The translations under genes were made by a program, and so were the position numbers. A stretch of DNA of 64,000 nt from sequence record PP301342.1. One strand, given 5' to 3'. Every line of letters starts with the position of its first letter. Positions within the stretch are counted from its first letter, which is position 1. Under the pieces are notes generated by a model. That model made no database searches and was not told the DNA's origin. It saw only the letters and a program-made list of their open reading frames with translations. This DNA comes from Escherichia phage UE-M3. Positions 4,923 through 33,377 of the stretch are shown piece after piece.

Positions 4923-4924
4923 CT

Positions 4925-14303: not shown

Positions 14304-14747
14304 ATGGATTTGTCATTCTTAACAGGCAACCCAACTCCACAGCCAGCTGCTATGTCTTGGATGTCTAATAACAATCAGAACTTTAATACCCCGGCTATGA
14401 ACTATAACCCAGGTGCAACTATTGGTATGGGGGCAAATACAGGAGTAGCCTCCCCTACTTCTTTCCTGTCTGGTTCAGCTGATCAGTTGGGATTGAATGT
14501 ACCTACCTTCCAATTAGGACTGGGTGCACTTGGTTCATTAGCTAATATCTACAGTGGTTTCCAGGCTAATAAGTTAGCCAAAGACCAGTTGAACTTTACT
14601 AAGAGTGTTACTAACACTAACCTGAATAACCAGATTAAGTCTTATAACACTGCACTGGAAGATCGTGCTCGTAGTCGTGCTACAGCAGAGAACCGTGACC
14701 AGTCTACTGCTGATGCTTATATTGCAGCTAATAAATTAACCCGTTAA
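14304..14747 (+). CDS. Hypothetical virion protein
   Basis: ORF 14283..14747 begins at TTG; ATG 14304 has AGGAG 7 nt upstream. Confidence 0.55.
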   Translation: MDLSFLTGNPTPQPAAMSWMSNNNQNFNTPAMNYNPGATIGMGANTGVASPTSFLSGSADQLGLNVPTFQLGLGALGSLANIYSGFQANKLAKDQLNFTKSVTNTNLNNQIKSYNTALEDRARSRATAENRDQSTADAYIAANKLTR

Positions 14748-14759: not shown

Positions 14760-16724
14760 ATGGCTCAAATTACATGGCGTAATGTTGATGCACCTAACTT
14801 CTCTGGAGTAGGTGACAGCATTCGCACATTTGGCAACATGATTGGTAACGCCACCTCTGGCTTAAGTGATGCACTGGGTAATTTCCAGAACGCTGCCAAG
14901 CAGGAGGCTGGCAATGCCGTCATGATGAATGCTATGCAGTATCAAGATCCTACTGAGTACCGTAATGCTTTGGCATCAGGTGCACTGTTTCAGGGGGTTG
15001 ACCCTTCATTGGTAAACCAGCGTACTCTCCAGAATCTGGATGAGCGAGCAGGTACACTGCTGACTCAACAAGGACAGCAGGGAACCAATGACTACATTGC
15101 ATATCGCTTTGGTCGCTTAAAGGATATTAACTCAGCACTAGATAATGCTTCTCCGGCTATTCGTTTATTGTCTGAGGCTTATCAGTCTGGTGACCAGAAT
15201 CGTATTAATACTGCATTGGGTCAGACTCGTGAGGCATTATCTACGCTCCCAGCTGACCAACAGTTAGAATTGTTAGGTAGTTTACAAGGACAGGGTAGTG
15301 CTGCTATTAATCAGGCGAGCAATCGTTTTGATTTGGGTGTTGCTCAACGTAATGATGCCGATAGTCAGGCAGCTATGGGTGTAATGGCACAGATTACCCG
15401 TGGTGCTGAGAACCCTAATGATGCCCGTCTGTTGGCAGAAGCATACAGTAAGAACCTGTCTCCAGTTGCACAGGCACGCTTGCAGGGATTACTGGCTAAT
15501 GCTTACCCGGGTGTTTACGGTAATGGTGTAGGTGCTACGTCTGCTCCTGGTACTGCTGGTACTCGTCAGGGTTCACCTTACGATGTTACTTATCAGTTTG
15601 CTGGTACATCTACTCCTATTACTCAAATGAGTATTGGTGATGTAATTAAACACCAGGATGGTATGAAATCGAACCAGGGTGCTTCCCCTGTTGGTGCATT
15701 CCAGATTAACCAAGCTACTCTGAAAGACTTCGCTCCCAAAGTTCTTGGTTCAGATTGGCAAAGCCAGCCTCTTTCTGCTGAGAACCAGGATAAGATTGGT
15801 AAGGCTATCTTCGAGTCTCGTAAGAATGGCAACCTTAAAGATACCTGGGCTGCTCTTCCTAACTCTACCCCTGGTGCTTATAAGGATATGACTTGGGAAC
15901 AGATTAAACCTGTTATTGCCCAAGCTGAAGTAGGGGCTGACCCATTCGCTCTGATTCAGAATAATCAAGGAAATCAGGCAGTATCCACTCTGGCTCAGGG
16001 TATGATTGGTACTCGTTCTATGCAGGATAATACCGGTAGTCTTAATACTGACTTCCTTGGTACTGTCACTGATAATACTCCAGTAGGTGAAATTGCTAAC
16101 CGTCTATTAGATGGTGACTTTAAAGGTGCTGACCGTAACTGGGTACTGAACCGACTAACTGATATTTCTCAACGTGGAAATATGTCACCAGCTATGGCTG
16201 CTGCTGTTATGCAGCGTGCACAGACTGGTGTACCGGAAGGTTACATTAGCCGTGCTATTGATGCAGTTAACCCATTCATTACCAACGAAGCCGGTAATGG
16301 TATGCGTCTTAATGACCGTTTGGTAGATCAGTTAATTGAGGGTGTACAACGTGGTGAACCACTGGAAGGCAGTGTGCGTAATCTTGGACGTGCTCAAGCT
16401 ATGCAGAACATTCAGGCAGCACAGACTGCTTATGATGCTGCTGTAGCTGCACTGACAAATACTCAGAACAAGATTAACACCGGACAAACAGGACTTACTG
16501 CATTGTTACCTGCACGTCAGGAAGCTGTTACTAAAGCTGCTGCAATGCTTCAAGCTGCACAAGCCCAAGTGCAAGCAGACCCAGCTAACCTGGCTCCAAG
16601 AGGTTTTCGGTCACAGGTTAGTGTGGACAGAGCACGAGCCAAGGAAGATGAAGAACGTGCTGCACGTTATCTACGTCAGGCACAGGGTTTGCCTGAGTAT
16701 ATGCAACCAAGACAAAATCGGTAA
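14760..16724 (+). CDS. Virion protein with possible lytic-transglycosylase-like motif
   Basis: 654 aa; segment SPVGAFQINQATLKDF resembles the SLT-domain GLMQ(I/V) motif; Q/A-rich coiled C-terminus; adjacent to vRNAP. Confidence 0.55.
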   Translation: MAQITWRNVDAPNFSGVGDSIRTFGNMIGNATSGLSDALGNFQNAAKQEAGNAVMMNAMQYQDPTEYRNALASGALFQGVDPSLVNQRTLQNLDERAGTLLTQQGQQGTNDYIAYRFGRLKDINSALDNASPAIRLLSEAYQSGDQNRINTALGQTREALSTLPADQQLELLGSLQGQGSAAINQASNRFDLGVAQRNDADSQAAMGVMAQITRGAENPNDARLLAEAYSKNLSPVAQARLQGLLANAYPGVYGNGVGATSAPGTAGTRQGSPYDVTYQFAGTSTPITQMSIGDVIKHQDGMKSNQGASPVGAFQINQATLKDFAPKVLGSDWQSQPLSAENQDKIGKAIFESRKNGNLKDTWAALPNSTPGAYKDMTWEQIKPVIAQAEVGADPFALIQNNQGNQAVSTLAQGMIGTRSMQDNTGSLNTDFLGTVTDNTPVGEIANRLLDGDFKGADRNWVLNRLTDISQRGNMSPAMAAAVMQRAQTGVPEGYISRAIDAVNPFITNEAGNGMRLNDRLVDQLIEGVQRGEPLEGSVRNLGRAQAMQNIQAAQTAYDAAVAALTNTQNKINTGQTGLTALLPARQEAVTKAAAMLQAAQAQVQADPANLAPRGFRSQVSVDRARAKEDEERAARYLRQAQGLPEYMQPRQNR

Positions 16725-16731: not shown

Positions 16732-16753
16732 AAAAGCCCTTCGGGGCTTTTTT
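16732..16753 (+). terminator. Rho-independent terminator
   Basis: aagccc-ttcg-gggctt stem-loop followed by ttttttc. Confidence 0.6.
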
Positions 16754-16818
16754 CTTACACTGGCTTACTGTAGAGTAAGCTTTCCATATACGATATAAGT
16801 TTGAACAGGAAACATGCT

Positions 16819-19800
16819 ATGTCAACATTTGACCGTCTGGCAGGTTTCGCAGACAGCATCACTAATGCTAAGCAAGTCGATGTCTCTACTGCAACCTCTC
16901 AGAAGCAAGCTGCACAAGGGCAAAGCCCTTTCCAATTAACCCCAGAGAATGCTTACAATCTCCAAACTGGTCGTGTAGGTAATCTTGGAATCGGTGCATT
17001 CGAACCAGGTTCACTTCAGGCAGATTTCACTCAAGCCTCCCCATTAGAAATTCTTAATAAATACGGTAATGAGCAAGGTCTACAGATTCTTAATAGCCGG
17101 GCTAATGCTGCTGATGCTGTACGTCAGGACTTATCTAAACAACGTACTAACGCAGAAGCATTTGGTGATACTCTTTCTGGTGTTGGTCTTGGTGTTGCTA
17201 ATACCCTTGGGGGCATTGCTGCTCTTGGCACAGGTCTGGTCAATGATAATGCCGGGGCATCCATTGCTTCCGGTATGGATTGGCTGAATGAAGGGGTACA
17301 CAATCTACAGTCTGATGCTCTGAATGCTACCCGTAAGGTTGTTCAGAATCAGAACCAGATTTCTGCACAAAAGAACCAGAGACTCTACGAAGAAGATATT
17401 AAAAATGGTGAGAACGATTTAGTTGCCTCCCTGTCTCGTATTGGTCGTGATGCTTTTGATTCTGTTGCTAATACACTTAATAATGGTATGGCTGCTACTG
17501 ATGGGCTGAGTGAAGGTGTTGGTTCTCTCTTTACCGGTGGTCCATTAATTCGTGGTGTATCTGCACTCGGTAAAGTAATGGTAGGTGGTGATAAAGCTGT
17601 TAAGGGTATTACCTTAGCTGCTGAGTTAGGTTCACGTCCTGCACAGGTTGCATTGTCTGCTGGTCGTGTTGCTGCACCTGCTATTGCAATTGGTGGTATG
17701 GAAGCTGGTGGTGCATACCAACAGACTGCTTCCGAAATCATGAAGATGTCCCATCAAGAATTGGCAAGTAAGTCTCCTGTTTATCAACAGCATATCGCTG
17801 ATGGTTTATCTCCTGATGAAGCACGTCGCCAAACTGCATCTGAAACGGGTATCATTGCTGCTGGCTTAACTGCTCCGGTTGCTGCTGCTACTGGTCCTCT
17901 GGTATCCAAATTTGAACTTAACCCACTTAAGGTAGGTTCGCTGGCTGGTGCTGGTTCTAACATGCTACGTGAAACAGTAGAAGAAGGTATTCAGTCTGGT
18001 ACAAGTCAGTTTGCACAGAACAAGGCAATTCAGGGTAATGTAGATGCTAAGCGTGATTTGCTTAAAGGTGTCGGTGAGCAAGCAGGTCTTGGTGCACTCT
18101 ACGGCTTCGGTAGTGCTGGTGTTGCTCAGGCTCCAGGTACAACTGTTAAAGCTGTTGGTGCTTCTGCTGGGCCTGCTTTACGTACTACTCTGGCTGGTGC
18201 TTCTCTGGTTGGTAGTGCATTAGCAAAAGCTGCCTCTCCTATTACTAACATCCTGGTTCAGCGTGGCGAAGAAGTTGCTAAGCGTAATGAACAAGCTTCC
18301 CCTGTATCTGATGCTACGGTTAATGCTGCTGCACAAGAAGCTACTGCTCAAGCAGAACAAGCACAAGCAACTGTACAAGAAGCAGTAGATGCAATGGATA
18401 TTTCTCCTGAAGATAAAGCTGCTGCTACTCAGTATGCTGCTGACTTAACTCAGGCAATGAAATTTGACCCAGTAGAACTGGAACAAGCTAACCCAGCAAT
18501 CCGTGAAGCTGTTTCTGGTTCCACTAACCGTGTTGAAGCTATTCAGAAGATGGCTGACCTGGTTAATACTGCCGAAGACCCTAACGTTCAAATGGAAGCT
18601 GCAATCCAGATGTATGACAACATCATGTCTATGGATAGCTTCATTAACCGTGATCCTGGTGCTTTAGCTAATCTGGAACAGGGTTCTCCTGCTGCTAATA
18701 TTGTTGACCAGTTCTCCGGCCTGATGGCTAACGTTCAGAATACACCAAAGGTACTTCGTGCATTCCGTGCCATCCATTCTATGATTCAGGAACAGGCTGA
18801 AGCAGGTAAACTGAAAGCTACCGAAGAAGCTAACCAAGCCCAAGCAAACAACATTGCTATGGCTGCTGATATGTCTCCAGAAGTACTGGATGCAGACTCA
18901 GTGAACATGGTTCTGAAACATGCAAGTGAAGGTAAGATTACACTGGGGAATCGTCAGCGTGCTGCCCTGCAATCTGCTGCTGCTCTATTGCAAGGAGCAC
19001 GAGAATTTGACGCTAAAGCAGAAGAACTAGGCTTACGTCCTCAAGACATTGTTAGTAAACAGATTAAAACCGACGAGTCTCGTTCTAATGAAGGTCAGTA
19101 CTCTGCGTTGCAACATGCTAAACGCATTCGTTCTGCGTACAACTCTGGTAACTTCGATTTGGCTTCCGCTTACCTCGACGACTTTATGAAGTTCGCCCAG
19201 CACATGCAGAATAAGGTCGGAGCGTTGAATGAGCATCTGATTTCTGGGAATGCGGATAAGAATAAGTCTGTCCATTATCAGGCTCTTACTCCCTCCCGTG
19301 AATGGGTACGTAGTCGTACTGGTCTTGGTGTTAATCCGTATGATACCAAGTCGGTTAAGTTTGCCCAGCAAGTAGGACTGGAGGCCAAAACCGTAGCTGA
19401 TATTGCTAACGCACTTGCTACGGCTTACCCGGAGCTTAATGTTTCTCATGTGAAGGTTACTCCATTAGATTCACGTCTGGACAAGCCTGCTGCCCAGGTA
19501 GTTAAAGAGTTCCGTCAAGGTGGTCTTGATGCCACTCAGTCTCAACAGACCAATGAACCAGTGAATCAGGTTGATGAAACTCCTGCACCAGCGCAAGAGA
19601 CTACTACTACTGTACAGCCTAAAGCTAAACCAGTGGTAGAAAATAAGACTGTTCCTGTTAAAGAGGCTAGTTCAAAAGCAGAAGAAGTCTCTACTACTAA
19701 GTCTGAAACAGTAGATGCTACCCTCACCAATGAGGATACCACTCAAAAAGTAGCTGAAACTAAAACGGAAATGGAAACAGTTTTCCCTGTCTATAACAAT

Positions 19801-22800
19801 GACAAGACACCGAACCAGTTCCTGAAATCATTTACCCTGCCGGAAGAACCTAAGTCTCGCACCATTGGTTCTGAATCCCCTTTGACTGATATTAAGCAAG
19901 CACTGTCTTCTACTGCACGCTTTGAAGCATTCACTCAAAAAGAAAATAACGCTCTCACAAGTGATGTGATTAAGCGTTATCAGGACTTAATGGGCTTTGG
20001 TGAAACTCTGAAGACTACTCTGTCTGATCGTCTGGCTAAGTTTCTTGCTAATAAGAACGTTGGTAAACGCTTTGCAGAAGGCACAGAGGCTAACCGTTGG
20101 GTAGGTGGTAAGTTACTTAATATCGTAGAGAAAGACGGAGACACCTTTAAGTTCAATGACCAGTTGTTAGAGACTGCTGTACTTGCTGGTCTGCAATGGC
20201 GACTGACTGCTACACAGAATGCTGCTGTTAAAGACATGAAAGATGTAGCTGCTATTACTGGAGTAGAAGCATCCTTGTTACCTGAAGGTATCCTGGCTGA
20301 ATTTGAGAATGCTCAGACTCTGGTTGAAGCTACTAACTCACTGGCTCAAAAGATTGAATCTTACTGGGGATTGAATCGTAATCCTAATGCACCACTGGGT
20401 TATACCAAAGGTATTCCAATGGCAATGGCTACAGAGATTCTGTCTTCTCTCATTGAGATGGGTGAAGTTAAAGAGTCTATGCTTGATGTGTCTGAGATTG
20501 ACCCAGACTCTAATAAGACCGTCGGTCTGTATACCATTGAGAAGCTGGATGATAACGATGCCATTAACAAGTTCCCTACTGCTATCGAGGAAGCTGTTCT
20601 CGTAGAACCAGAAGAGAAAATGTACTTTGGTGATGATATTCCTTCCGTGGCTCAAACTCAGTTACGTAACCCTGCTGTTAAGAATACCCCAGAGCAGAAA
20701 GCTGCTCTTAAAGCAGAACAGGCTACCGAGTTCCGTGTACACATGCCGATGGTTAACTTCTATGAAGCATTAGGTCGTGACAACATTCTGGAACTGATGG
20801 GTGCTGGTACTCTTAATCCTGAACTGCTGAACGTGAACACTGCTAAGTCACTGGAGGGTAAAAACCTGTCAGTGTCTATGGCATATGATTCCCTGTTCGG
20901 TGTAATCAACCAGTTACAGGAACAGGAGAATGGTCTGGATACGCCTATTCACTATGGTTACAACATGACCCGTGTAGGTCGTATGCAGATGTTAGGTAAG
21001 AACAACCCACAGTCCAGCAAGCTGGTTCGTGAAGCAATTCTGCCAACCTTCTCTACTATCGACTTAAGTAATGAAAACAGTCAGACGTTCTCTGATTTCC
21101 AGTTAGGTCTGTCTCAGGCATTAGGTATCAAGGTTCATAATATGTCCCGTGAAGCTATGTCTGAAAAACTGACCAAAGCTCTGGAAGGTAATTTGAAACC
21201 TGCTGTTGATATGATGGTTGAGTTTGATAAGTCCGGGCACTTACCAGCCGATGCAGTAGATATTCTTAAGACATCTCTGGGTGGTGATAAATCATTCGTA
21301 GCTCTTATGGCTCTTATGGAGTATGCCCGTTACCTGAACAGTGATGACCGTGCCAACTTTAATACCCCACTGTACGTTGAAGCCGATGGTGTAACCAACG
21401 GACCAATCAACGCAATGGTATTAATGACTGGTGGTAAGTTCACTTCAGACTGGATTAAGAATACTGCTAAAGGTGGTCTGTTCTTCGGTAAAGCTGGTAA
21501 GACTATGAATGAACATCGTTCACAGGATGACAGTGTTGACCTGTATGAAGCATCTACCAATGGTCTGCAACAAGCACTTAATGAGTTACGTACTACTTAC
21601 CGTAACAACGTTCCGGTTATGAACCAAATGAATCATCTTCAGAAGTTAATGGACCTGTTTATTAAAGACTTTAACCTGAATGAAGACGGTACTCTGGACC
21701 TGAAACGTGGTATCGCTAAAAACCCACTGACCATTACCATCTATGGTTCAGGTGCTCGTGGTATTGCTGGCAAGATGGTTAGTGCAATTACTGACACCAT
21801 CTATGAACGATTCAGTGATGTTCTGCAAGCTCGTGCTGCTGACCCTAGCATTTCCCCAGCTATGGCAATGTTTGGTAAGGAGGCTGCGTCTGAGGCTGAT
21901 GCTCAGGCTATGCTGGATACTTTCCTTACTTCTATGGAAGCACTGACTGGTAATGTTCCAGTTATGCGTAAAGGTGAATTGTCTATTCAACAGGTAGAAG
22001 GTGCTCTGACTGGTAAGTTAGACCCTCAGAAGTTTACCGTATCGGGTAATGCCCTGAAGAACTTACAAGAGAACATGCTTCACCTGTTCGTTGAACCAAT
22101 GCGTACTGGTATCCGGAATACTGTTGGGGAAGGTCTGATGCATTCTACTGAGAACTTGCAGAAGGCTACCCAGATTCAGTCTTTGGTTCTACAAGACATG
22201 TTCCAACAAGCAGTACAGGCTAAGCTGGCAGAAAAAGAAAAAGACCCAACCTGGAAGAAGGGTGATTTCTTAACACAGAAAGAACTGAATGAAATTCAGG
22301 AATCATTGTCTCCACTGGCTCCAATGATTGAGACTGGTTCACAGACTTTCTATATTGCTGGTAGTGAGAATACTGATGTTGCTAACCAGGTACTGGCTAC
22401 CAACTTAGATGACCGTATGCGTGTGCCAATGAGCATCTATGCTCCTTCTCAGGCAGGCGTTGCAGGTATTCCATTTATGACCATTGGCACTGGTGATGGC
22501 ATGATGATGCAGACCCTTTCTACTATGAAAGGTGCTCCGAAGAATACCCTGAAAATCTTTGATGGTATGAACATTGGTATCGACAACATCACTGATGCAA
22601 GTCGTAAAGCTAACGAGGCTGTATACACTTCCTGGCAGGGTAACCCTATCAAGAATGTTTATGAGTCTTTTACTAAGTTCATGAAGAACGTAGACTTCAG
22701 CAAACTATCGGATGAAACCAAACAGGCTATCGCTAAATCTGCTCTGGAATATGACCAGCGTGAAGGTGCTACCGATGACCTGTTACGTGTTGGTGCTGAA

Positions 22801-25800
22801 CAGATTGAACGTAACCTGCGTAATATTGCTCTGGGTGTAGATATTCGTCACAAAGTAATGAACCAGGTACAGACTACTGTTGACCAGATGGCTGCTGTTG
22901 GTGCTCCTTATGTGAACAACGGTAAAATCTCTCTGGAAGGTCTGACCGTAGACCAACAAGTAGCTAAGCTAAATGAACTGTTCGATGCTGAATTAAACAA
23001 ACGTCGTGATGCAGTACGTGCTGCTAAAGTAGAACCAGTGAAAGAAGTGCCAGCAATGGAACAGGTTGGTCGTGTACTGAAGTCTGGTGTACGCCTACTG
23101 TCTAATACTGCTATCTCTAAGCTGGCTAAAGAGATGTCTCCGGAACAGCAAGCAGTACTGAAAGAAGTACAGAAATCCCTTGCTGCTAAAGACTATAAGG
23201 TTGTTTACGGTACACCTTCCCAACTGGATGCTTATGCTATTGAGAAGAATATTACTCGCCCAGCACCAGAAGATATTGAAGCTGCTGAAGCTGGTAATGC
23301 GTATGGTTGGACTAACTTTGAAGATAAGACCATCTACTTAGTTACCCCTTCCTTAGAGACTCTGGTTCATGAATTGGTGCATGCTTCTACTTTTGAATCT
23401 GTACTGGCTCACTATGAGGGTACTCCTAATGAAGCGGTCCAGAACATTGAAGACCTGATGAACCAGTTCCGTGCTCTGGATGTTAAGGATGAATCCCCGG
23501 CAGTTCGGGAAGCATATGCAGATGCTCTTAATACTATTAACGGTCATTTATCTAATGGCTTTATTGAGCCAGCAATGGCTAAAGCTGCTGCACTGAATGA
23601 GTACATGGCATGGGGTTTAACCAACCGTGAACTGATTAGTAAGCAGAAGAAAACCACTGCACTTAAGACTATGGTTCAGGCTGTATATGAAGCAATTAAA
23701 CGTCTGGTATTCGGGCGTAAGAAAGCACCAGCTAATGCAGATGATATGTTCTCTGGCTTACTGTTTAACTCGTCCGTAGTTATGCGTGGGCAAGCTCCTA
23801 CTGCTGCTGTAGCCAAAGATACTACTCTGTTCCATAACAAAACGTATGGTGACAATACTCGTCTGGAAGAGCTAGGGAAAACCTTCGATAAACTGATTAC
23901 TGACTACATTGGTTCTGAACCAGTACAGCAAGTAATTCGTAAAGGTAAGTTCTCTGATGCAGTGGTTAATGCGACTAAAGTAACTCGTGATGTTCAGGCT
24001 CATGGCTTCACTATGAATATGCAGGAACAACGTCTCTTTACTAACATTGTTGCTGCTCTGGCTACTGAGGCTGCTATTAATCCTGCTGCTCTGGCTCGTG
24101 CGCAGGAATACTACACACATGTTACTAAGAACCTGACCGTTGAGTCATTCATGGCTGACCCAGATAGTACTAACCCTGCTGACCGTTACTATGCACAGCA
24201 GAAGTTCGATACCATCATGGGTGCTAACAACATTGAGTTTGATTCACAAGGTCGTTCCTCCTTACTGCCTACCTTTATTGGTCTGGCGATGGTAAGTGAA
24301 GAGGTACGTAAAGTGCTGGCTGATATTCCAGTTATGAAAGTAGACAAGAAATCTGGCAATACCGCTGATGCAATGCTGACTAACATCGGTACTGCTGCAA
24401 TGGCTAGTCTGAATGCTCGTGTAGCAGGAGATACTAAAGCTACCAACGTACAGGAAGGTATGGATGCACTGGCTCAGACAATCATGCAGACCAGTCTTAA
24501 TGCACAATCCTTCTATGATTCCGTTGCTACTCCTACGGGTAATGCTATTGATCGTGCTAACCAGTATCTGGTGGACTCTATTGATGTACTGTCTACCCGT
24601 GCTTTAGAAGGTGCTCGTGAAGTTGCAGCTAATACCAAGAACCCGTTGGTTAAAGGTGCTGCCCATGCTGCACAATTAATAGCTGCTATTGCTACAGAGA
24701 AGAATGGTGCAATCGTAGCCGAAGGTGTTATGGCTGCAATGAACCAAGGTAAAGTATGGCAACCCTTTCACGATCTGGTTAATGACTTAACTGGTCGTAC
24801 TAAGAGTAATGCTTCTGTATATGATTTGATTAAGGCAGTGCGTGCCCAGGTACAGGCTGACCGTCAACAGTTCCGTGAACATCTGCCCACCACTATCGCA
24901 TCTAAGTTCAGCCGTAAGCTGACTAATGATGAGTGGAAAGCAATGCATACCGGTATGGGTAAAACCGACTTAGCTGTTCTGCGTGACACTATGTCTCTGG
25001 GTGAAATTCGTGACTTGCTGACTGACCAAAAGATTGTTGACCGTGAAGTGAATAAGCTGGAAGCAGATTTGCAGAAACAAGCAGGACGTAACTGGCCTTT
25101 GATTAGCCGTAAATCTAAGCAACTGGCTCAGTACATGATTAATGGCACAGTTGGTAATAACTTGCTGCGTAATGCTACTGCAATCTCTCGTATGCTGGGT
25201 GAACGACAGGCTGCACGTTCTACTGTAGACGTAGCTCAACTGGATAAACTGATTACTCTGTATGCACTGGAAGCAATGAGTAAGACTGACCGTGAGATGT
25301 TATCTTCACTGGCTCAATCAGAAGCTGATGGGATTGATTTTGCTACTTCTTATCTGGTTGGACAGCGTAAAGATGAAATGGCTAAAGCCAAATCTGACAT
25401 GCGTGCAACCCTGAACCAGTACAAAGGGTATATTCCTGGTGAGACTAAACAGGGTGTTAACTTGATTGTTGCTGAAGATAGTCAGTTTGCTGATTTGATT
25501 GAGAAGTCCTATGTACGTCTGGGTACTTATCAGGGTAGCTCTGCTAATCGTGGTCCAGCACGTAGCTACTACTTTGCACCGGTACAGGCACAGGCTCCAT
25601 TCTCGCAAGGTATCTTACAGAACGTTCGCAATACTGCTGGTGGTGTAGACCTTGGTACAGGCTTTACGATGGGTACAATGGTAGCTGGTCGTATCACTGA
25701 CAAGCCTTCTGTAGACCGTATCACTAAAGCACTGGCTCGCGGTGAACGTGGTAATGAACCACTGCTGCCTGTATATGATGATAAAGGCAATGTGGTTGCT

Positions 25801-27171
25801 TATGAGCAATCTATTGACCCTAACATGCTGAAGCACATTGAGGGTGAGAACCATCTCGCTCGTGCAATCGGTGTATGGCGTGGTCGTCAGGTAGAGGAAG
25901 CTAAGGCTCAGCGTTTCAACGATATGCTGATTGAGAACCTGCATAGCATGTATAAAAACGACATTAAAATGTCTGCCTCTAACAAGTCACAGTACGTTAA
26001 CCTTCTTGGTTCTAAACTGGACCCAGTAACTGCTGATGCCCTTAAGCTGATGAACAGTGAAACTCGTCAGAAAGCAGAAAGTCTGTTTGGTCCTGGTGAG
26101 TTGTGGGTACGTCGTGACATGCTGAATGATGCACTGGGCTATCGTGCAGCTTCCGTAGGTGATGCCTGGTCTGGCAATTCTCGTTGGTCACCAGAAACAC
26201 TGGATACCTTCAAGAAAGCTATGTTGGGTGTATTCGGCAACCGTGCTTATAAGTATGTAATGGGTGGTGAGAACCTGGTTCAAAACTTAGTTAAAGAAGC
26301 TAAGACTCTGATTGTAGTTAAATCAGTAGTTGTTCCTGCTGTTAACTTCCTGGCTAACCTTTACCAGATGGTTGGTCGTGGTGTACCTGTTAAGAACATT
26401 GCTAAGAGCATTCCACAGAAGACTGCTGAGATTAACCAGTACCTGAAATCTCGTCTGCGTCAGGTAGATGCAGAAGCAGAATTACGTGCAGCTACTAACC
26501 CGAACCAGATTCGTAAGCTTAAGGCTGAAATTCAGTCCATCACTGATAGTCATAAGCGTATGAGTATCTGGCCTCTGTTAGAAGCTGGTGAGTTTTCTTC
26601 AATTGCAGATGCTGGTATTGGACGAGATGACATCCTGATTACTGAAGGTAAACTTCACGAATACATGGATAAACTGGTTGATAAGTTACCTAAGTCTGTA
26701 CGTAATGCTGGACGTTATGCCCTTATCACCAAGGATACTGCTTTATTCCAGGGTATCCAGAAGACGGTTGAGTACTCTGACTTTATTGCTAAAGCAATCA
26801 TCTATGATGATTTGACTCAGCGTAAAGGTAAGACTCGTGAAGAAGCACTTGGACGTGTAACGGAAGAGTTCATTAACTATGACCGTCTGCCTGGTCGCTT
26901 CCGTGGGTATATGGAAAGTGTTGGTCTTATGTGGTTCTATAACTTTAAGATTCGTTCTGCAAAAATTGCAGTATCCATGATTCGTAACAACCCGGTACAC
27001 GCAGCTATGGCTATGTTGGCTCCAACTCCTACCATGTTTGGTAATGTTGGTTTACCTATTCAGGACAACATCTTCAGTATTGCTGCACAAGGCAATCTCG
27101 GTTACTCCTGGGGCTTCGGTCAGGGACTTCGTGCCCATAACCTTAACCCTTGGCTCAATCTAGCTAACTAA
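16819..27171 (+). CDS. Giant virion RNA polymerase (N4 gp50-like vRNAP)
   Basis: Uninterrupted ~10.4 kb ORF (3450 aa from ATG 16819; track start 16801 is TTG); size and position after capsid/virion genes match N4 vRNAP (~3500 aa as recalled); hairpin promoters for such an enzyme found elsewhere in window. Confidence 0.85.
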   Translation: MSTFDRLAGFADSITNAKQVDVSTATSQKQAAQGQSPFQLTPENAYNLQTGRVGNLGIGAFEPGSLQADFTQASPLEILNKYGNEQGLQILNSRANAADAVRQDLSKQRTNAEAFGDTLSGVGLGVANTLGGIAALGTGLVNDNAGASIASGMDWLNEGVHNLQSDALNATRKVVQNQNQISAQKNQRLYEEDIKNGENDLVASLSRIGRDAFDSVANTLNNGMAATDGLSEGVGSLFTGGPLIRGVSALGKVMVGGDKAVKGITLAAELGSRPAQVALSAGRVAAPAIAIGGMEAGGAYQQTASEIMKMSHQELASKSPVYQQHIADGLSPDEARRQTASETGIIAAGLTAPVAAATGPLVSKFELNPLKVGSLAGAGSNMLRETVEEGIQSGTSQFAQNKAIQGNVDAKRDLLKGVGEQAGLGALYGFGSAGVAQAPGTTVKAVGASAGPALRTTLAGASLVGSALAKAASPITNILVQRGEEVAKRNEQASPVSDATVNAAAQEATAQAEQAQATVQEAVDAMDISPEDKAAATQYAADLTQAMKFDPVELEQANPAIREAVSGSTNRVEAIQKMADLVNTAEDPNVQMEAAIQMYDNIMSMDSFINRDPGALANLEQGSPAANIVDQFSGLMANVQNTPKVLRAFRAIHSMIQEQAEAGKLKATEEANQAQANNIAMAADMSPEVLDADSVNMVLKHASEGKITLGNRQRAALQSAAALLQGAREFDAKAEELGLRPQDIVSKQIKTDESRSNEGQYSALQHAKRIRSAYNSGNFDLASAYLDDFMKFAQHMQNKVGALNEHLISGNADKNKSVHYQALTPSREWVRSRTGLGVNPYDTKSVKFAQQVGLEAKTVADIANALATAYPELNVSHVKVTPLDSRLDKPAAQVVKEFRQGGLDATQSQQTNEPVNQVDETPAPAQETTTTVQPKAKPVVENKTVPVKEASSKAEEVSTTKSETVDATLTNEDTTQKVAETKTEMETVFPVYNNDKTPNQFLKSFTLPEEPKSRTIGSESPLTDIKQALSSTARFEAFTQKENNALTSDVIKRYQDLMGFGETLKTTLSDRLAKFLANKNVGKRFAEGTEANRWVGGKLLNIVEKDGDTFKFNDQLLETAVLAGLQWRLTATQNAAVKDMKDVAAITGVEASLLPEGILAEFENAQTLVEATNSLAQKIESYWGLNRNPNAPLGYTKGIPMAMATEILSSLIEMGEVKESMLDVSEIDPDSNKTVGLYTIEKLDDNDAINKFPTAIEEAVLVEPEEKMYFGDDIPSVAQTQLRNPAVKNTPEQKAALKAEQATEFRVHMPMVNFYEALGRDNILELMGAGTLNPELLNVNTAKSLEGKNLSVSMAYDSLFGVINQLQEQENGLDTPIHYGYNMTRVGRMQMLGKNNPQSSKLVREAILPTFSTIDLSNENSQTFSDFQLGLSQALGIKVHNMSREAMSEKLTKALEGNLKPAVDMMVEFDKSGHLPADAVDILKTSLGGDKSFVALMALMEYARYLNSDDRANFNTPLYVEADGVTNGPINAMVLMTGGKFTSDWIKNTAKGGLFFGKAGKTMNEHRSQDDSVDLYEASTNGLQQALNELRTTYRNNVPVMNQMNHLQKLMDLFIKDFNLNEDGTLDLKRGIAKNPLTITIYGSGARGIAGKMVSAITDTIYERFSDVLQARAADPSISPAMAMFGKEAASEADAQAMLDTFLTSMEALTGNVPVMRKGELSIQQVEGALTGKLDPQKFTVSGNALKNLQENMLHLFVEPMRTGIRNTVGEGLMHSTENLQKATQIQSLVLQDMFQQAVQAKLAEKEKDPTWKKGDFLTQKELNEIQESLSPLAPMIETGSQTFYIAGSENTDVANQVLATNLDDRMRVPMSIYAPSQAGVAGIPFMTIGTGDGMMMQTLSTMKGAPKNTLKIFDGMNIGIDNITDASRKANEAVYTSWQGNPIKNVYESFTKFMKNVDFSKLSDETKQAIAKSALEYDQREGATDDLLRVGAEQIERNLRNIALGVDIRHKVMNQVQTTVDQMAAVGAPYVNNGKISLEGLTVDQQVAKLNELFDAELNKRRDAVRAAKVEPVKEVPAMEQVGRVLKSGVRLLSNTAISKLAKEMSPEQQAVLKEVQKSLAAKDYKVVYGTPSQLDAYAIEKNITRPAPEDIEAAEAGNAYGWTNFEDKTIYLVTPSLETLVHELVHASTFESVLAHYEGTPNEAVQNIEDLMNQFRALDVKDESPAVREAYADALNTINGHLSNGFIEPAMAKAAALNEYMAWGLTNRELISKQKKTTALKTMVQAVYEAIKRLVFGRKKAPANADDMFSGLLFNSSVVMRGQAPTAAVAKDTTLFHNKTYGDNTRLEELGKTFDKLITDYIGSEPVQQVIRKGKFSDAVVNATKVTRDVQAHGFTMNMQEQRLFTNIVAALATEAAINPAALARAQEYYTHVTKNLTVESFMADPDSTNPADRYYAQQKFDTIMGANNIEFDSQGRSSLLPTFIGLAMVSEEVRKVLADIPVMKVDKKSGNTADAMLTNIGTAAMASLNARVAGDTKATNVQEGMDALAQTIMQTSLNAQSFYDSVATPTGNAIDRANQYLVDSIDVLSTRALEGAREVAANTKNPLVKGAAHAAQLIAAIATEKNGAIVAEGVMAAMNQGKVWQPFHDLVNDLTGRTKSNASVYDLIKAVRAQVQADRQQFREHLPTTIASKFSRKLTNDEWKAMHTGMGKTDLAVLRDTMSLGEIRDLLTDQKIVDREVNKLEADLQKQAGRNWPLISRKSKQLAQYMINGTVGNNLLRNATAISRMLGERQAARSTVDVAQLDKLITLYALEAMSKTDREMLSSLAQSEADGIDFATSYLVGQRKDEMAKAKSDMRATLNQYKGYIPGETKQGVNLIVAEDSQFADLIEKSYVRLGTYQGSSANRGPARSYYFAPVQAQAPFSQGILQNVRNTAGGVDLGTGFTMGTMVAGRITDKPSVDRITKALARGERGNEPLLPVYDDKGNVVAYEQSIDPNMLKHIEGENHLARAIGVWRGRQVEEAKAQRFNDMLIENLHSMYKNDIKMSASNKSQYVNLLGSKLDPVTADALKLMNSETRQKAESLFGPGELWVRRDMLNDALGYRAASVGDAWSGNSRWSPETLDTFKKAMLGVFGNRAYKYVMGGENLVQNLVKEAKTLIVVKSVVVPAVNFLANLYQMVGRGVPVKNIAKSIPQKTAEINQYLKSRLRQVDAEAELRAATNPNQIRKLKAEIQSITDSHKRMSIWPLLEAGEFSSIADAGIGRDDILITEGKLHEYMDKLVDKLPKSVRNAGRYALITKDTALFQGIQKTVEYSDFIAKAIIYDDLTQRKGKTREEALGRVTEEFINYDRLPGRFRGYMESVGLMWFYNFKIRSAKIAVSMIRNNPVHAAMAMLAPTPTMFGNVGLPIQDNIFSIAAQGNLGYSWGFGQGLRAHNLNPWLNLAN

Positions 27172-27175
27172 ATGA

Positions 27176-27206
27176 AAAAGCCCCTCATTAGAGGGGCTTT
27201 AATTTT
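27176..27206. terminator. Bidirectional terminator between convergent vRNAP gene and minus-strand genes
   Basis: aaagcccctc-atta-gaggggcttt stem-loop flanked by A-run and T-run. Confidence 0.6.
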
Positions 27207-27208
27207 TA

Positions 27209-27709
27209 CTAAACTAACACCCAGTCTTCAGCTAATATATCTGATTGGGATGGGACCCAAGGCATAAACTGGTCATCAACAGTTTTGATTCCTAACCATG
27301 GACGAGGTTTCAATTCATCAGCAAGTCCTGGACGCTCTAAGCTACTGCTATTCCATTCTTGAGCAGCAACGTACTCAATGTACATTCCTTTACCATTCCA
27401 GCCTTTACGGGCTAGTTTGAAGCCGGATTTGAGAAGCTCTACTGCATGACCAAAGGTGCAACCTTTTTCTACGTCATGGTACGCAGTTTCAAATGCAGAT
27501 TTAGGTGACCAGCTAATATAGCCACGGAACTGAGGATGGTTAGACTTAGAGTCTGGGTACTCTACTAAGTAACCTTCTTCTAATGGGTCTTCATTAGCAG
27601 GTACATCCCAGCCACGAAGTTTGCAGTATGTTTCTTTGTTCATTCGGAAACCATTTACACACTTGGTTCCGATATAATTGGTAAAATGGACTTTAATTTC
27701 TTCTGACAT
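27209..27709 (-). CDS. Two-domain conserved phage protein; C-terminal part resembles DUF2829-type motif
   Basis: ORF track start 27736 is GTG; ATG 27709 has GAGG Shine-Dalgarno; motifs KGWNGKGMYIEY and WVPSQSDILAEDWVLV. Confidence 0.5.
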   Translation of the reverse strand: MSEEIKVHFTNYIGTKCVNGFRMNKETYCKLRGWDVPANEDPLEEGYLVEYPDSKSNHPQFRGYISWSPKSAFETAYHDVEKGCTFGHAVELLKSGFKLARKGWNGKGMYIEYVAAQEWNSSSLERPGLADELKPRPWLGIKTVDDQFMPWVPSQSDILAEDWVLV

Positions 27710-27726
27710 AACTACCTCAAATGAGA

Positions 27727-27757
27727 AAGCCCTCACTAGGAGGGCTTGTTTTGTTTT
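27727..27757 (+). terminator. Terminator-like hairpin with + strand polarity inside a minus-strand gene block
   Basis: aagccctc-actag-gagggctt perfect 8-bp stem followed by gttttgtttt on + strand; lies in leader of gene 27209..27709. Confidence 0.35.
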
Positions 27758-27827
27758 GGCTTCATGAGCCTTACCACATGTCGGGTAGTTCAGTACCTTT
27801 CGGTAAAAACTACCTTACACTTTTGAA

Positions 27828-28208
27828 TCAGATTGTACAACCACCACCATCACAGGTGTTGTTTTCTGCAAAGGAAGCCAGAGCTTTAGCAGTCTCTTCT
27901 TTCTCATGCAGTGCCTGACGTAGCAGGTAACCTTCTAATTCCCAAATCTTATTGAATGCATTTTCATATGCATACTGACGGCCTTTTTGCTCATCATAGA
28001 TAGCTGGGTCAACACAGGCAGATACACCTTCAACTTTGAAGCCATTTTCCAAGATGATAATGCAATAGGTTATCAGACCCAGGTTAGCCAAATCATCTGC
28101 CGGGAGTGCAGATGGATCAACAAATGCAGACTTCACTGCATCAGCTCCATTAAAATAGTAGACGCTCTTAATCTTAGCTTCGATTGCTTCTTTACTTACT
28201 GTTGCCAT
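27828..28208 (-). CDS. Conserved phage protein (possibly N4 gp49-like family)
   Basis: ATG 28208 with GAGG Shine-Dalgarno; family assignment from memory of Phage_gp49_66-like pattern, unverified. Confidence 0.45.
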   Translation of the reverse strand: MATVSKEAIEAKIKSVYYFNGADAVKSAFVDPSALPADDLANLGLITYCIIILENGFKVEGVSACVDPAIYDEQKGRQYAYENAFNKIWELEGYLLRQALHEKEETAKALASFAENNTCDGGGCTI

Positions 28209-28377
28209 TATTAGCCTCATAGAGTGGTTTGAGTTTGTACTTAAACATGACTGCGTTGTTATAGGCTACGCTACCTGCAAACACCAAAGACTTGCGTCCT
28301 CGATTATCCGTTACCTCATAGGCATACGGGGTTGAGATTAGGTCAATCATATTGATTATCCAATTATTAATACTCAA
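28192..28377 (-). CDS. Small hypothetical protein
   Basis: 61-aa ORF overlapping downstream gene start; preceded by terminator hairpin. Confidence 0.4.
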   Translation of the reverse strand: MSINNWIINMIDLISTPYAYEVTDNRGRKSLVFAGSVAYNNAVMFKYKLKPLYEANNGNSK

Positions 28378-28380
28378 ATA

Positions 28381-28420
28381 AAAAAGTCCCCCAGAGTGAC
28401 GGCTCCAGGGGACTTAGTAC
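28381..28420 (-). terminator. Hairpin with T-run on minus strand, downstream of tRNA cluster
   Basis: agtcccc...ggggact stem with long loop, A-run on + side (T-run for minus transcripts). Confidence 0.4.
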
Positions 28421-28658
28421 TATTTACCCATAGCTGGGAGGCTTTTGGTTCTTACCACGAAGACAGTCCACGCTGACTAGACTTGGGATTGATAGTCCCG
28501 TTCCTGTGGTAATTACTCAGGCTAGGATTTAAGGAGTTCCTATTCTCCAGCGAAATTCCCGTCGAGGGGAATAACAATACAATAGCAGTCACTGGACTGT
28601 CTTACCAGTGTTGTCTTTAGAGTGCGATGCAATCAGGACTATGTTACTGCTGAATGGG

Positions 28659-28732
28659 TGTCCACTACTGGATTTGAACCAGTGACTTTCCGATTATTAG
28701 TCGGTTGCTTTCCCCGTCTAAGCTAAGCGGAC
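28659..28732 (-). tRNA. tRNA, canonical cloverleaf; anticodon loop CUAAUAA (anticodon AAU, isotype tentative Ile)
   Basis: Minus strand folds with acceptor GTCCGCT/AGTGGAC, D-arm GCTT/AAGC, anticodon stem ACCGA/TCGGA, T-arm ACTGG-TTCAAAT-CCAGT; CCA not encoded. Confidence 0.6.
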
Positions 28733-28738
28733 ATAATA

Positions 28739-28814
28739 TGGTTACCCGGACAGGATTCGAACCTGCGTCCTAGTTGGTTTACTAGTGGGGCTTTACCACT
28801 AAGCCTACCGGGTA
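28739..28814 (-). tRNA. tRNA-like gene with encoded CCA but non-canonical anticodon loop (6- or 8-nt)
   Basis: Acceptor TACCCGG/CCGGGTA, D-arm GGCT-TAGTGGTAA-AGCC, T-arm GCAGG-TTCGAAT-CCTGT, 3-prime ACCA; anticodon region CTAGT-AAACCA-ACTAG cannot form a 7-nt loop. Confidence 0.55.
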
Positions 28815-29115
28815 TTAATAGGTGAGTCATGCCAGACTCTAACTGGCTCCTTCTTCGCAATCCTTACATACCCCTACATAATTATTGCGTTAAGCTTTTT
28901 TGTTTAAGTTTAAGTGAAGGCGTTCTTGCTGACTCATAATTGGGTTGGGCGTTTGACGAATGACTAGTTCGTTACTACCCGTTTGCCATAAGTACCTGGC
29001 GACTTTGGTTTGAGGTGGGAGTCCGAGTCCTGTACAGCCTTACCGTTCACACATTGGCAGCGTATCTAGAGTTGCACTTCCGGCAACTGGATTTAACTGT
29101 TACACCTCAAATAGG

Positions 29116-29215
29116 CAGTGGGGGATGGAATCGAACCATCAGTATTAAGTCTTATTCGTGCACCAAGCACGCTAGTAGATTACTCTACCGGAGGGAATCG
29201 AACCCTATCTACTTC
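29116..29215 (-). other. Two adjacent tRNA-like T-arm motifs with no canonical cloverleaf resolved by eye
   Basis: Minus strand GATGG-TTCGATT-CCATC and TAGGG-TTCGATT-CCCTC plus D-loop-like GGTAGAG; acceptor pairing not found at canonical distance. Confidence 0.3.
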
Positions 29216-29322
29216 ACCAGACCCACCATAATTCTTCCAATTTAGAGTAGCATTGTCACGGTGGGTGCTTTAAATGCCGGGAAACATTTAAATATACAAT
29301 GCTACTTTGAATTGGTTATCAG

Positions 29323-29436
29323 TGAAGGATTCGAACCTCCGGTTGGAGTCTATAGCTTACCGCAGCAGCCCTCCAATCTAGCGGTGTCACACTTAGTCCA
29401 AACTTGAACATGTCAAGCCATCTCGTGCAACTGATA
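29323..29436 (-). other. tRNA-like element with encoded CCA, unusually long (~114 nt)
   Basis: T-arm GGAGG-TTCGAAT-CCTTC, 3-prime ACTGATA-A-CCA; only complementary 5-prime strand TATCAGT lies 110 nt away; internal TTGGAG/CTCCAA stem. Confidence 0.35.
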
Positions 29437-29438
29437 AT

Positions 29439-29504
29439 TGGTTCCGGCGTCTGGACTCGAACCAGAACACTCATGCCGTGCACGACACTAGTACCTACAC
29501 CGGA
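29439..29504 (-). other. tRNA-like element with encoded CCA, unusually short or mis-delimited
   Basis: T-arm TCTGG-TTCGAGT-CCAGA, acceptor TCCGGTG/CGCCGGA, CCA encoded; body too short for a canonical tRNA. Confidence 0.3.
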
Positions 29505-29571
29505 ATTAATTGCCAGGGATTCCACCTGGCTCCATCTGTTTTTATAGTCACTCAGATATCGTCTGGACTGT

Positions 29572-31175: not shown

Positions 31176-31176
31176 A

Positions 31177-32528: not shown

Positions 32529-32568
32529 AATATTTTTCCTAATAAGTGATTAACAACCAGGCAAACGC

Positions 32569-33321: not shown

Positions 33322-33377
33322 TATTTTTCCTCGTTTAATTTAGGAGTCCTTCAAACCAAAGAAAGACTCCTGTTTAC

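Follow-up and report, generated by a model that had tools for sequence, protein, structure and literature searches.

Positions 16819–27171 on the + strand of Escherichia phage UE-M3 hold one very long open reading frame, which raises the question of what its product is and what each part of so large a protein does. Here, we analyzed this gene within a window of 64,000 nucleotides (record PP301342.1). The product is almost certainly a Gamaleyavirus virion RNA polymerase (vRNAP), encapsidated and injected, and the orthologue of gp50 of phage N4. Gamaleyavirus phages are N4-like members of the Schitoviridae.

The open reading frame and its relatives

The vRNAP coding sequence (16819–27171, +) is a single uninterrupted frame that runs from an ATG to a TAA at 27169–27171, which gives exactly 3450 aa plus the stop, as read from both the ORF listing and the sequence. 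With about 5% stop codons per random codon, the chance of 3450 open codons is in the order of e^-160. Counted from the first TTG, the listed ORF extends over 16801–27171 (+). The ATG at 16819 is nevertheless the likely start, since the Shine-Dalgarno sequence AGGAA (16807–16811, 7 nt 5' of the ATG) falls within the TTG extension and since the protein would then begin with MSTFDRLAGFADS, a match to the start of N4 gp50, MSVFDRLAGFADS. Antisense ORFs within the gene had no PHROG match and were treated as spurious. The gene closes the + strand block of late and structural genes. In this respect, the initial annotation, which had described an uninterrupted frame of 3450 codons at the end of the structural module behind its own terminator and Shine-Dalgarno, was exact: the frame has these very limits, the gene is the last of the + strand late block, and a hairpin (16732–16751) and the AGGAA are both present.

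At the DNA level, the gene was 100% identical to positions 26695–37047 of PP175015.1, annotated as ‘RNA polymerase’, in Escherichia phage UE-S5a (Gamaleyavirus, Schitoviridae). The matching gene, UES5a_027, has been named as the large vRNAP (PMC11927229) and is given there as 3456 aa (TTG start) vs. 3450 aa in GenBank (ATG). While the gene itself is free of differences, one 55-nt tandem duplication distinguishes the window from PP175015.1 outside it. About 50 other Gamaleyavirus (G7C-like) records showed 92–99% DNA identity to the vRNAP gene. The gene is therefore already deposited, named and published in UE-S5a, and is a known hallmark of N4-like phages.

At the protein level, PHROG 2206 (‘virion RNA polymerase’) was matched at E=0 over aa 25–3449, and the full-length gp50 structures 11GP and 9PNR at E=0 over aa 1–3449. 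BLASTP against N4 gp50 (YP_950528) gave 66% identity end to end with 2% gaps, distributed as 60% in the N-terminal domain (NTD), 71% in the polymerase (Pol) domain and 69% in the C-terminal domain (CTD). The match in size to N4 gp50 that had been claimed thus holds across the full length, and the claimed synteny was confirmed by gp51 and gp52 homologues directly upstream. The same uninterrupted frame was found in 61 records that span 80% or more of the gene, as well as in 11 divergent phages, where it encodes 3240–3677 aa. A protein homologue search with the Pol domain returned only two fragmentary proteins, from a database evidently without giant proteins.

As read from the sequence, the polypeptide is built of three parts: a helical, Gly/Ala-rich NTD, a linker with the RNA polymerase core, and an HExxH domain followed by a helical C2 domain.

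The polymerase domain

The RNA polymerase (mini-vRNAP) domain, supported by Pfam, PDB and the N4 alignment, spans aa 985–2070 (19771–23028, +). Its four N4-vRNAP Pfam matches (PF21894, 5e-101; PF21867, 1e-58; PF21769, 5e-56; PF21624, 3e-28) lie far above the gathering scores and include the plug, helical and vRNAP_dom sub-domains. PDB entries 3Q0A and 2PO4 were matched at E=0, with 71% identity between these central ~1086 aa and the crystallized mini-vRNAP.

The key residues of the domain are R1388 (motif T/DxxGR), D1523 (motif A), R1630, K1634 and Y1642 (motif B) and D1915 (motif C). All six are shared without exception by 12 vRNAPs, among which identity falls as low as 20%. The promoter-contacting tryptophan W1094, which stacks on -11G, was compared with N4 only and is conserved. 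The N4 numbering of the catalytic and tryptophan residues, which reportedly goes back to Kazmierczak in 2002 and Murakami in 2008, was checked only by the presence of the expected residue type at each position.

The T/DxxGR, A, B and C motifs are collinear with those of T7 gp1 (NMDWRGR alongside NMTRVGR, FDGSCSG alongside ADGVTNG, HD alongside FD), and the R-x3-K-x7-YG spacing of motif B is identical to that of T7. General searches reached T7 RNA polymerase marginally at best: Pfam returned no match to PF00940 at E<=1; the best BLASTP segment, on the T/DxxGR motif, had E=0.11; and a 12-sequence profile aligned to T7 with hhalign had P=0.016 and a probability of 2.8% over 226 collinear columns that include three motifs. 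Because generic profile searches fall short of T7 RNA polymerase, the relationship to T7 is drawn from the motifs together with the solved structures of N4. The right-hand palm, fingers and thumb fold would follow from these structures at 71% identity; they have been described as a canonical fold (PMC13492108, PMC13434306). Accordingly, the initial proposal of a minimal T7-like polymerase in the central domain stands on the four N4 Pfam domains and the T7-order motifs, whereas the profile comparison suggested along with it succeeded against the mini-vRNAP (E=0) and was marginal against T7 RNA polymerase (PF00940 absent, BLASTP E=0.11, hhalign P=0.016).

The N-terminal domain, linkers and C-terminal domains

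The flanking regions had been called poorly understood, a description that recent work has outdated (PMC5512222, PMC13434306, PMC13492108). The NTD (aa 1–901; 16819–19521, +), 60% identical to that of N4, is alpha-helical and rich in Ala and Gly, and it has two hydrophobic Gly-rich segments (aa 119–140 and 344–362); in N4, this domain is the membrane-inserting injection module (PMC13434306). Linker 1 (aa 902–984; 19522–19770, +) is of low complexity, rich in T, E, V, A, K and P, approximately 20 aa shorter than its N4 counterpart and the least conserved part of the protein. Relatives of the PhAPEC5 type have an insert of ~121 aa in this linker, for which neither Pfam nor PHROG gave a match. 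Flexible linkers lie on both sides of the Pol domain.

CTD-C1 (aa 2082–2335; 23062–23823, +) is, by its profile and the N4 description, a zincin-like metallopeptidase (MPTase) domain. It carries the motif H2184-E2185-x-x-H2188 and, in the block ALNEYMAWGL, E2261; these four residues were invariant in 12/12 vRNAPs and align with the same residues of phiKMV gp37. A single-sequence PDB search with this domain found N4 only, while a 12-sequence profile matched phiKMV/LUZ19 gp37 (PDB 9SFN_G, identified as such by tblastn) at E=8.8e-12. Weak matches were obtained to Spartan/SprT in the PDB profile search (E=0.08) and, in Pfam, to SprT-like (4/12), Tox-MPTase4 (3/12), WLM (1/12) and M91 (1/12), with best E values of 0.017–0.085. 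The N4 CTD-C1 has been described as an MPTase with an HHpred P=4e-4 to lethal factor (Iyer 2017, PMC5512222). We had considered the HExxH motif of the CTD as a new observation and rejected this: PMC13434306 mentions it in a single sentence and PMC5512222 treats it in full. CTD-C2 (aa 2336–3450; 23824–27168, +) is a large alpha-helical domain with 71% identity to N4, where it lies against the palm and fingers, holds the polymerase in an autoinhibited state and is required for encapsidation (PMC13434306, PMC13492108).

The presence of this module bears on the hypothesis of Iyer et al. 2017 (PMC5512222) that the vRNAP is a ‘polyvalent protein’ cleaved by its own zincin-like domain, either within the head or once injected, into NTD, Pol and CTD, so that a fragment would be the functional polymerase. 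The invariance of the HExxH and the downstream Glu in 12 vRNAPs and the flexible linkers around the Pol domain would suit such processing, as would the description of the MPTase as the hub domain in polyvalent proteins that are injected (PMC5512222) and the finding that the CTD is released or disordered in cryo-EM promoter complexes. However, the N4 vRNAP was reported to be packaged unprocessed (PMC5512222), the recombinant full-length N4 protein remained intact and showed no sign of degradation (PMC13434306; mass spectrometry in PMC13492108), both N4 structure papers leave bound zinc and proteolysis unmentioned, and the similarity to characterized zincins is weak (E 0.02–0.09). Taken together, we regard self-cleavage as improbable.

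Signals flanking the vRNAP gene

A terminator-like hairpin separates the gp51-like and vRNAP genes (16732–16751, +). It reads AAAAGCCC-TTCG-GGGCTTTT followed by TTCTT, or AAAAGCCC-UUCG-GGGCUUUU and a U-run as RNA. N4 has the identical 26-nt core, nine IMG/VR relatives retain the hairpin, and the annotations of PhAPEC5 and Pokken place a terminator at the same site. The stretch from this hairpin to the vRNAP ATG showed no sigma-70-like promoter. The hairpin is probably a leaky attenuator.

RNA folding revealed a second hairpin at 16762–16781 (+), with an 8-bp stem and a GUAG loop. Alignments showed that its shape, not its sequence, is kept in N4 and relatives: the differing sequences of the counterparts in N4 and in relatives L011–L013 still pair, and one T-G wobble among the counterparts pairs on the sense strand only. 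Further downstream (16792–16811, +), the GATATAAGTTTG block (16792–16803) and the Shine-Dalgarno sequence were invariant in 11/11 aligned sequences, N4 included. On the other side of the gene, the sequence has a bidirectional intrinsic terminator (27177–27200, either strand) between the vRNAP gene and convergent - strand genes.

The ejection operon and the hairpin promoters

Upstream of the vRNAP gene lie genes for a gp52-like ejection protein of 147 aa (14304–14747, +; 60% identity to N4 gp52, E=1e-49) and a gp51-like ejection protein of 654 aa (14760–16724, +; 49% identity to N4 gp51 over 614 aa). In N4, gp52 is located in the tail lumen and forms an outer-membrane complex (PMC13434306), and gp51 forms a periplasmic tunnel. 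The gp52-gp51-gp50 order was also found in 10 other Schitoviridae.

We also searched for the targets of the polymerase with the pattern NNNGC-TYC-GCNNN-TTWTGG, a hairpin being defined by a 5–7 bp stem, a 3-nt loop and the conserved flank. In N4, used as a positive control, the pattern found exactly P1–P3, and 300 resamples gave 0 matches. The window contains three vRNAP hairpin early promoters, all on the - strand, ahead of early genes and at positions syntenic with N4: a P1-like one (63896–63914; CATGC-TCC-GCATG-TTATGG) upstream of a gp1-like ORF, a P2-like one (63214–63232; GACGC-TCC-GCGTC-TTATGG) upstream of a gp2-like ORF, and a P3-like one (58797–58815; GCTGC-TCC-GCAGC-TTTTGG) upstream of the RNAPII small-subunit gene, a gp15-like ORF. 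The last is identical to N4 P3.

These promoters weigh against the idea that the vRNAP serves chiefly as a structural ejection or ‘pilot’ protein, like T7 gp16 or phiKMV gp37, with a vestigial polymerase core. The protein does occupy the operon slot of the largest podophage ejection protein, has a C1 HExxH module with a homologue in phiKMV gp37, and is devoid of cysteine, as are gp16 and gp37. Yet the three cognate promoters ahead of early genes are intact, the catalytic residues are all invariant across the family, the tryptophan is conserved relative to N4, and the Pol domain is among the best conserved parts (71% identity to N4). Moreover, the two roles are not exclusive, as N4 gp50 performs both. 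A vestigial core is thus very unlikely. That the long frame is a product of chance or mis-assembly, for instance of genes fused by a sequencing error, can be dismissed despite a 1453-aa ‘virion RNA polymerase’ in the entry of Shigella phage pSb-1 and some records mislabelled ‘DNA polymerase’ or ‘translation initiation factor 2’, as it is excluded by the homologous records and divergent phages in which the frame is uninterrupted, by the gp50 structures and by collinearity with the experimentally purified 3500-aa N4 protein.

With regard to the vRNAP reading, nothing found contradicts it.

Proposed course of infection

The following scheme is taken from work on N4 (PMC13434306, PMC13492108). The vRNAP gene would be transcribed late, at the end of the ejection operon gp52-gp51-gp50, and the conserved upstream hairpin would probably lower the vRNAP dose; the N4 virion contains 4 ± 1 vRNAP copies vs. 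12 each of gp51 and gp52 (PMC13434306). Encapsidation would require the CTD, and inside the head the protein may be held loosely folded, as ‘beads on a string’. At infection, an envelope-spanning conduit would be assembled from gp52 and gp51, and the vRNAP would be threaded via the tail channel of ~30–35 Å, with the NTD anchoring in the inner membrane. The Pol domain is then expected to recognize the three DNA-hairpin promoters extruded from supercoiled DNA and to transcribe the early genes, including those for RNAPII, and transcription may help to draw the genome in. Before early transcription, and again after it, the CTD would keep the vRNAP autoinhibited.

Virion proteomics bears on one step of this scheme. 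The initial annotation had held that absence of the protein from purified virions would speak against its assignment. The LC-MS/MS analysis of UE-S5a lists ‘RNA polymerase’ among 54 particle-associated proteins (PMC11927229), which answers the point loosely: the protein is on the list, but the list includes many non-structural proteins and is therefore weak proof of specific encapsidation.

Comparison with known systems

N4 gp50 (PDB 2PO4, 3Q0A, 9PNQ-9PNW, 11GP/11FW/11GO) has the same NTD/linker/Pol/linker/C1-HExxH/C2 layout, and shares with the UE-M3 protein the catalytic and -11G-stacking residues, the gp51 and gp52 partners and the upstream hairpin. The three hairpin promoters are of the same type and placement in both phages; the stem sequences of P1 and P2 differ. 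Host recognition differs as well, with endosialidase and K5 lyase tailspikes in UE-M3 vs. gp65/gp66 in N4.

With the T7 RNA polymerase or single-subunit superfamily (T7 gp1, mitochondrial RNA polymerase), the vRNAP shares the order of T/DxxGR, A (DG), B and C (xFD/HD). In contrast, pairwise and Pfam similarity to T7 RNA polymerase did not reach significance, and profile similarity was marginal. Additional insertions in the plug, wrist and palm set the vRNAP apart; its promoters are single-stranded hairpins instead of duplexes, and the enzyme is embedded in an injected protein of 3450 aa.

Like the vRNAP, phiKMV/LUZ19 gp37 and T7 gp16 are the last and largest products of a three-gene ejection operon, are threaded through the tail and contain no cysteine. 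The HExxH...E module is common to the vRNAP and gp37 (E=8.8e-12), while T7 gp16 lacks the MPTase module, its sole HExxH standing in a different context. Both of these Autographiviridae proteins are without a polymerase domain and ~1300 aa long. By description, gp66 of crassvirus phi14:2 is also a giant, encapsidated and ejected RNA polymerase that starts early transcription, with an unrelated two-barrel fold related to RNAi polymerases (PMC13434306).

Cysteine exclusion and implications

No cysteine was present in the 3450 aa of the UE-M3 vRNAP, nor in the ~41,800 aa of the 12 vRNAPs together. The gp51- and gp52-like proteins of UE-M3 had no cysteine, and 13 gp51/gp52-like proteins were likewise free of it (0 in 5,613 aa), as were T7 gp15 and gp16 together with phiKMV gp35–37 (0 in 4,481 aa). 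In other proteins encoded by these phages, cysteine made up 0.3–1.2%. We tentatively propose, with slightly less than even confidence, that podophage proteins which are threaded out of the capsid in an unfolded state, via the tail and the oxidizing periplasm, may have been selected to exclude cysteine totally, and that this trait may mark such proteins irrespective of family. A discussion of it was not found in the ejection-protein literature searched; it may be noted elsewhere.

The vRNAP belongs to an enzyme class studied for 50 years, with full-length cryo-EM structures in 2026, and the gene is useful as a clean positive control, since size, synteny and signals from the raw sequence gave the right answer. 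For UE-M3, a complete enzyme-plus-targets system can now be annotated, consisting of the polymerase, its three hairpin promoters and the gp51/gp52 conduit. If the proposal on cysteine is true, the combination of large size, a late-operon position and absence of cysteine could serve as a predictor of ejected proteins for uncharacterized phages, and one engineered cysteine pair should block ejection in a DsbA-dependent manner. Cysteine avoidance in unrelated ejection proteins would then represent a simple, testable constraint on the threading of megadalton-scale proteins through a 30–35 Å channel.

The virion RNA polymerase gene and its flanking signals

The virion RNA polymerase (vRNAP) gene of phage UE-M3 (window 16819-27171, + strand) lies in a single open frame that runs without interruption from the first TTG at 16801 to 27171. 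From the ATG at 16819 it comprises 3450 codons and closes with a TAA at 27169-27171, exactly as stated in the initial annotation, and a frame of this length cannot be due to chance. The Shine-Dalgarno sequence and terminator ascribed to the gene were also found, the former being AGGAA at 16807-16811 and the latter a terminator-like hairpin at 16732-16751 (+), which reads AAAAGCCC-UUCG-GGGCUUUU followed by a U-run. Since the Shine-Dalgarno lies 7 nt before the ATG and the N terminus, MSTFDRLAGFADS, agrees with that of N4 gp50, the start is likely to be ATG 16819 rather than TTG 16801, from which the 3456 aa given in the UE-S5a paper were counted (PMC11927229). On the 3' side, a bidirectional terminator (27177-27200, both strands) precedes convergent - strand genes. 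Antisense ORFs within the vRNAP gene gave no match to PHROG-type phage protein families.

This exact gene sequence is already known: its 10,353 nt are 100% identical to positions 26695-37047 of Escherichia phage UE-S5a (PP175015.1; Schitoviridae, Enquatrovirinae, Gamaleyavirus), where it is annotated as 'RNA polymerase'. The product, UES5a_027, was named as the phage's large virion-associated RNA polymerase, and 'RNA polymerase' appears in the LC-MS/MS list of 54 particle-associated UE-S5a proteins (PMC11927229), which is loose evidence of specific encapsidation because many of the 54 are non-structural. At the DNA level, at least 80% of the gene was covered in 61 phage records, and at the protein level a relative of the polymerase (Pol) domain was present in 248. 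The same gene is misannotated as 'DNA polymerase' in UE-M6, PBM-2, PBM-3, U1G and ST4, as 'translation initiation factor 2' in phi G17 and as 'hypothetical protein' in IME11 (JX880034).

Beyond the convergent terminator, ARAGORN found tRNA-Ile(aat) at 28655-28733 (-) and, at 28739-28814 (-), a second tRNA-like gene whose anticodon was called abnormally, with 2 bases; in PP175015.1 the latter is 'tRNA-OTHER'. A tRNA-Cys is listed there as well, at ~29571-29650, where ARAGORN made no call.

Homology to N4 gp50 and relationship to T7 RNA polymerase

The interpretation of the product as a virion RNA polymerase is supported. Its assignment to the N4 gp50 class, previously based on size and synteny, agrees with a BLASTP alignment collinear end to end with N4 gp50 (66% identity, 2% gaps) and with gp51 and gp52 homologues directly 5' of the gene. 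Using the N4 domain boundaries given in the 2026 cryo-EM papers, identity was 60% in the N-terminal domain (NTD), 49% in linker 1, which is shorter here, 71% in Pol and 69% in the C-terminal domain (CTD). PHROG 2206 ('virion RNA polymerase') matched over aa 25-3449 (E=0), solved full-length N4 gp50 structures (11GP, 9PNR and others) over aa 1-3449 (E=0) and mini-vRNAP crystal structures over aa 997-2069, while four Pfam families built from N4 vRNAP sub-domains matched within aa 1292-2025, far over threshold. The N4 positions that we take to be essential (W129, R424, D559, R666, K670, Y678 and D951, mini-vRNAP numbering) each hold the expected residue type, the conserved counterparts being W1094, R1388, D1523, R1630, K1634, Y1642 and D1915. 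W1094 aside, these six catalytic residues were invariant in all 12 aligned vRNAPs, which were drawn from nine host genera with identity down to 20%.

As for the T7-like central domain proposed initially, the motifs were borne out, but the relationship is barely visible to generic tools. The Pfam search gave no PF00940 match in vRNAP, the best BLASTP HSP with T7 gp1 (E=0.11) sits exactly on the T/DxxGR motif, and when the 12-sequence Pol profile was aligned with T7 by hhalign, 226 collinear columns that take in T/DxxGR, motif A and motif B scored P=0.016. Read side by side with T7, the four T7-type motifs are unmistakable in the protein sequence, with the motif B spacing R-x3-K-x7-YG identical to that of T7 gp1. 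The right-hand fold of this vRNAP is presumed from the solved N4 structures (PMC13492108, PMC13434306).

The ejection operon and the leader of the vRNAP gene

The genes directly 5' encode homologues of N4 gp51 (49% identity) and gp52 (60% identity), the other ejection proteins, which form, in N4, a periplasmic tunnel and an outer-membrane complex, respectively (PMC13434306). The order gp51-like gene, vRNAP gene, convergent genes was found in 10 of 10 other Schitoviridae examined. In the gp51-like protein (14760-16724), the central aa ~300-360, GASPVGAFQINQATLKDF, are strongly conserved with N4; elsewhere in Schitoviridae such neighbours are annotated as 'cell wall hydrolase' in R7L and as 'peptidoglycan hydrolase' in ZC08.

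The hairpin between the gp51-like and vRNAP genes shares its 26-nt core with N4, the flanks being different; nine IMG/VR relatives retain it, and the PhAPEC5 and Pokken records give it as a terminator. Given this retention and the N4 virion stoichiometry of ~4 vRNAP vs. 12 gp51 and 12 gp52 (PMC13434306), it is a reasonable inference that the hairpin is a putative leaky attenuator of the vRNAP gene. A second hairpin (16762-16781) lies between it and the Shine-Dalgarno; N4 and relatives preserve the pairing but have other sequences, and a T-G wobble points to an RNA structure on the sense strand. Between this hairpin and the Shine-Dalgarno, the 12-nt block GATATAAGTTTG (16792-16803) was invariant in 11 of 11 sequences.

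Hairpin early promoters and the early-gene end

Early promoters were sought with the pattern NNNGC-TYC-GCNNN-TTWTGG, whose stem was required to be complementary and which was seeded with N4 P1 (read from the genome) and a P2 oligonucleotide (PMC13492108). As a positive control, N4 nt 1-6000 contained exactly three sites, 5' of gp1, gp2 and gp15. The window likewise yielded exactly three, each on the - strand with loop TCC: at 63914-63896, 5' of the gp1-like ORF; at 63232-63214, 5' of the gp2-like ORF; and at 58815-58797, 5' of the RNAPII small-subunit (gp15-like) ORF, the last identical to N4 P3. In 300 Markov resamples there were none. Both the vRNAP and its predicted promoters are thus present and intact. 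None of the three is annotated in the stretches of PP175015.1 inspected.

Whereas gp15 and gp16 adjoin in N4, in the window an HNH homing endonuclease gene (57444-57950, -) separates the RNAPII subunit genes RNAP2 (56180-57478) and RNAP1 (57950-58768), and is probably a mobile-element insertion. At 61993-62102, a 55-nt unit is perfectly duplicated in tandem (2.0 copies, 100% match). PP175015.1 contains the unit once, and record and window are therefore not byte-identical; the duplication frameshifts the C-terminal part of the small early ORF UES5a081, giving a 61-aa ORF at 61988-62173 (-). On its right side, the window stops where the record itself physically stops. The - strand of 63940-64000 resembles the N4 left terminus (tggctggggctacaccc vs. 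tggtggggctacacccc), which places the genome's early-gene end at this side of the window.

Terminal domains and the HExxH module

The description of the terminal thirds as poorly understood is dated, since roles for both have now been published in N4. Membrane-spanning helices are predicted in the NTD, which inserts into nanodiscs and has been proposed as the inner-membrane anchor of the enzyme (PMC13434306); the CTD is needed for encapsidation, packs on palm and fingers, and keeps the motif-B loop and plug autoinhibited (PMC13434306, PMC13492108).

At the start of the CTD, H2184-E2185-x-x-H2188 and E2261 were invariant in 12 of 12 vRNAPs. A profile of this sub-domain (window 23062-23823, aa 2082-2335) matched residues 420-564 of PDB 9SFN_G (E=8.8e-12), identified by tblastn as the largest ejection protein of phiKMV/LUZ19, gp37, and gave weak matches to SprT/Spartan, WLM, Tox-MPTase4 and M91. 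Reciprocally, the gp37 fragment matched N4-like vRNAPs and a Serratia phage Parlo protein ('DarB-like antirestriction'). The HExxH module thus connects, by homology, the large proteins that unrelated podophages eject. The module is not new: aa 2130-2448 of N4 gp50 were defined by Iyer et al. (2017) as a zincin-like MPTase and described as the hub domain in injected 'polyvalent proteins' (PMC5512222), and Bellis et al. give the motif one sentence (PMC13434306). The accompanying proposal that vRNAP is autoproteolytically processed by its own MPTase domain carries low weight, as N4 vRNAP was reported to be packaged unprocessed (PMC5512222) and to be intact on purification (PMC13434306, PMC13492108).

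Among the vRNAPs of the family, linker 1 varies in length between about 58 and 283 aa. The PhAPEC5-type Gamaleyavirus vRNAPs (3571 aa) carry in it an extra ~121 aa (aa ~968-1103) that resemble a folded domain, gave no Pfam or PHROG match and are lacking in this ORF, where the site corresponds to window ~19720-19770.

Absence of cysteine from the vRNAP and other large ejection proteins

The vRNAP (16819-27168) contains no Cys, against 15-34 expected from averages of 0.99% in the other window ORFs and 0.45% in the other late ORFs (P(0) between 2e-7 and 1e-15). The same was true of all 12 vRNAPs (about 41,800 aa), of the PhAPEC5 vRNAP and of 13 gp51/gp52-like proteins totalling 5,613 aa (the window's own, 14304-14744 and 14760-16721, and 11 more). 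T7 gp15 and gp16 and phiKMV gp35-37, largely unrelated in sequence, also lack Cys, the exception being T7 gp14 with one, while portals, capsids, tail proteins and terminase of T7 and phiKMV have 0.3-1.2%. The text of the N4 ejection paper (PMC13434306) contains neither 'cysteine' nor 'disulfide', 'cysteine' did not show in the search hits for most of the other ejection-protein papers retrieved, and the absence was not found discussed in the ejection-protein literature searched.

The likeliest explanation, we infer, lies in the need for these chains to remain thread-like in the extracellular particle and to cross the oxidising periplasm, Cys being avoided because disulfides would block that passage. 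Autotransporter passenger domains show a similar Cys bias. This pattern is the sole item of the vRNAP analysis that might repay follow-up.
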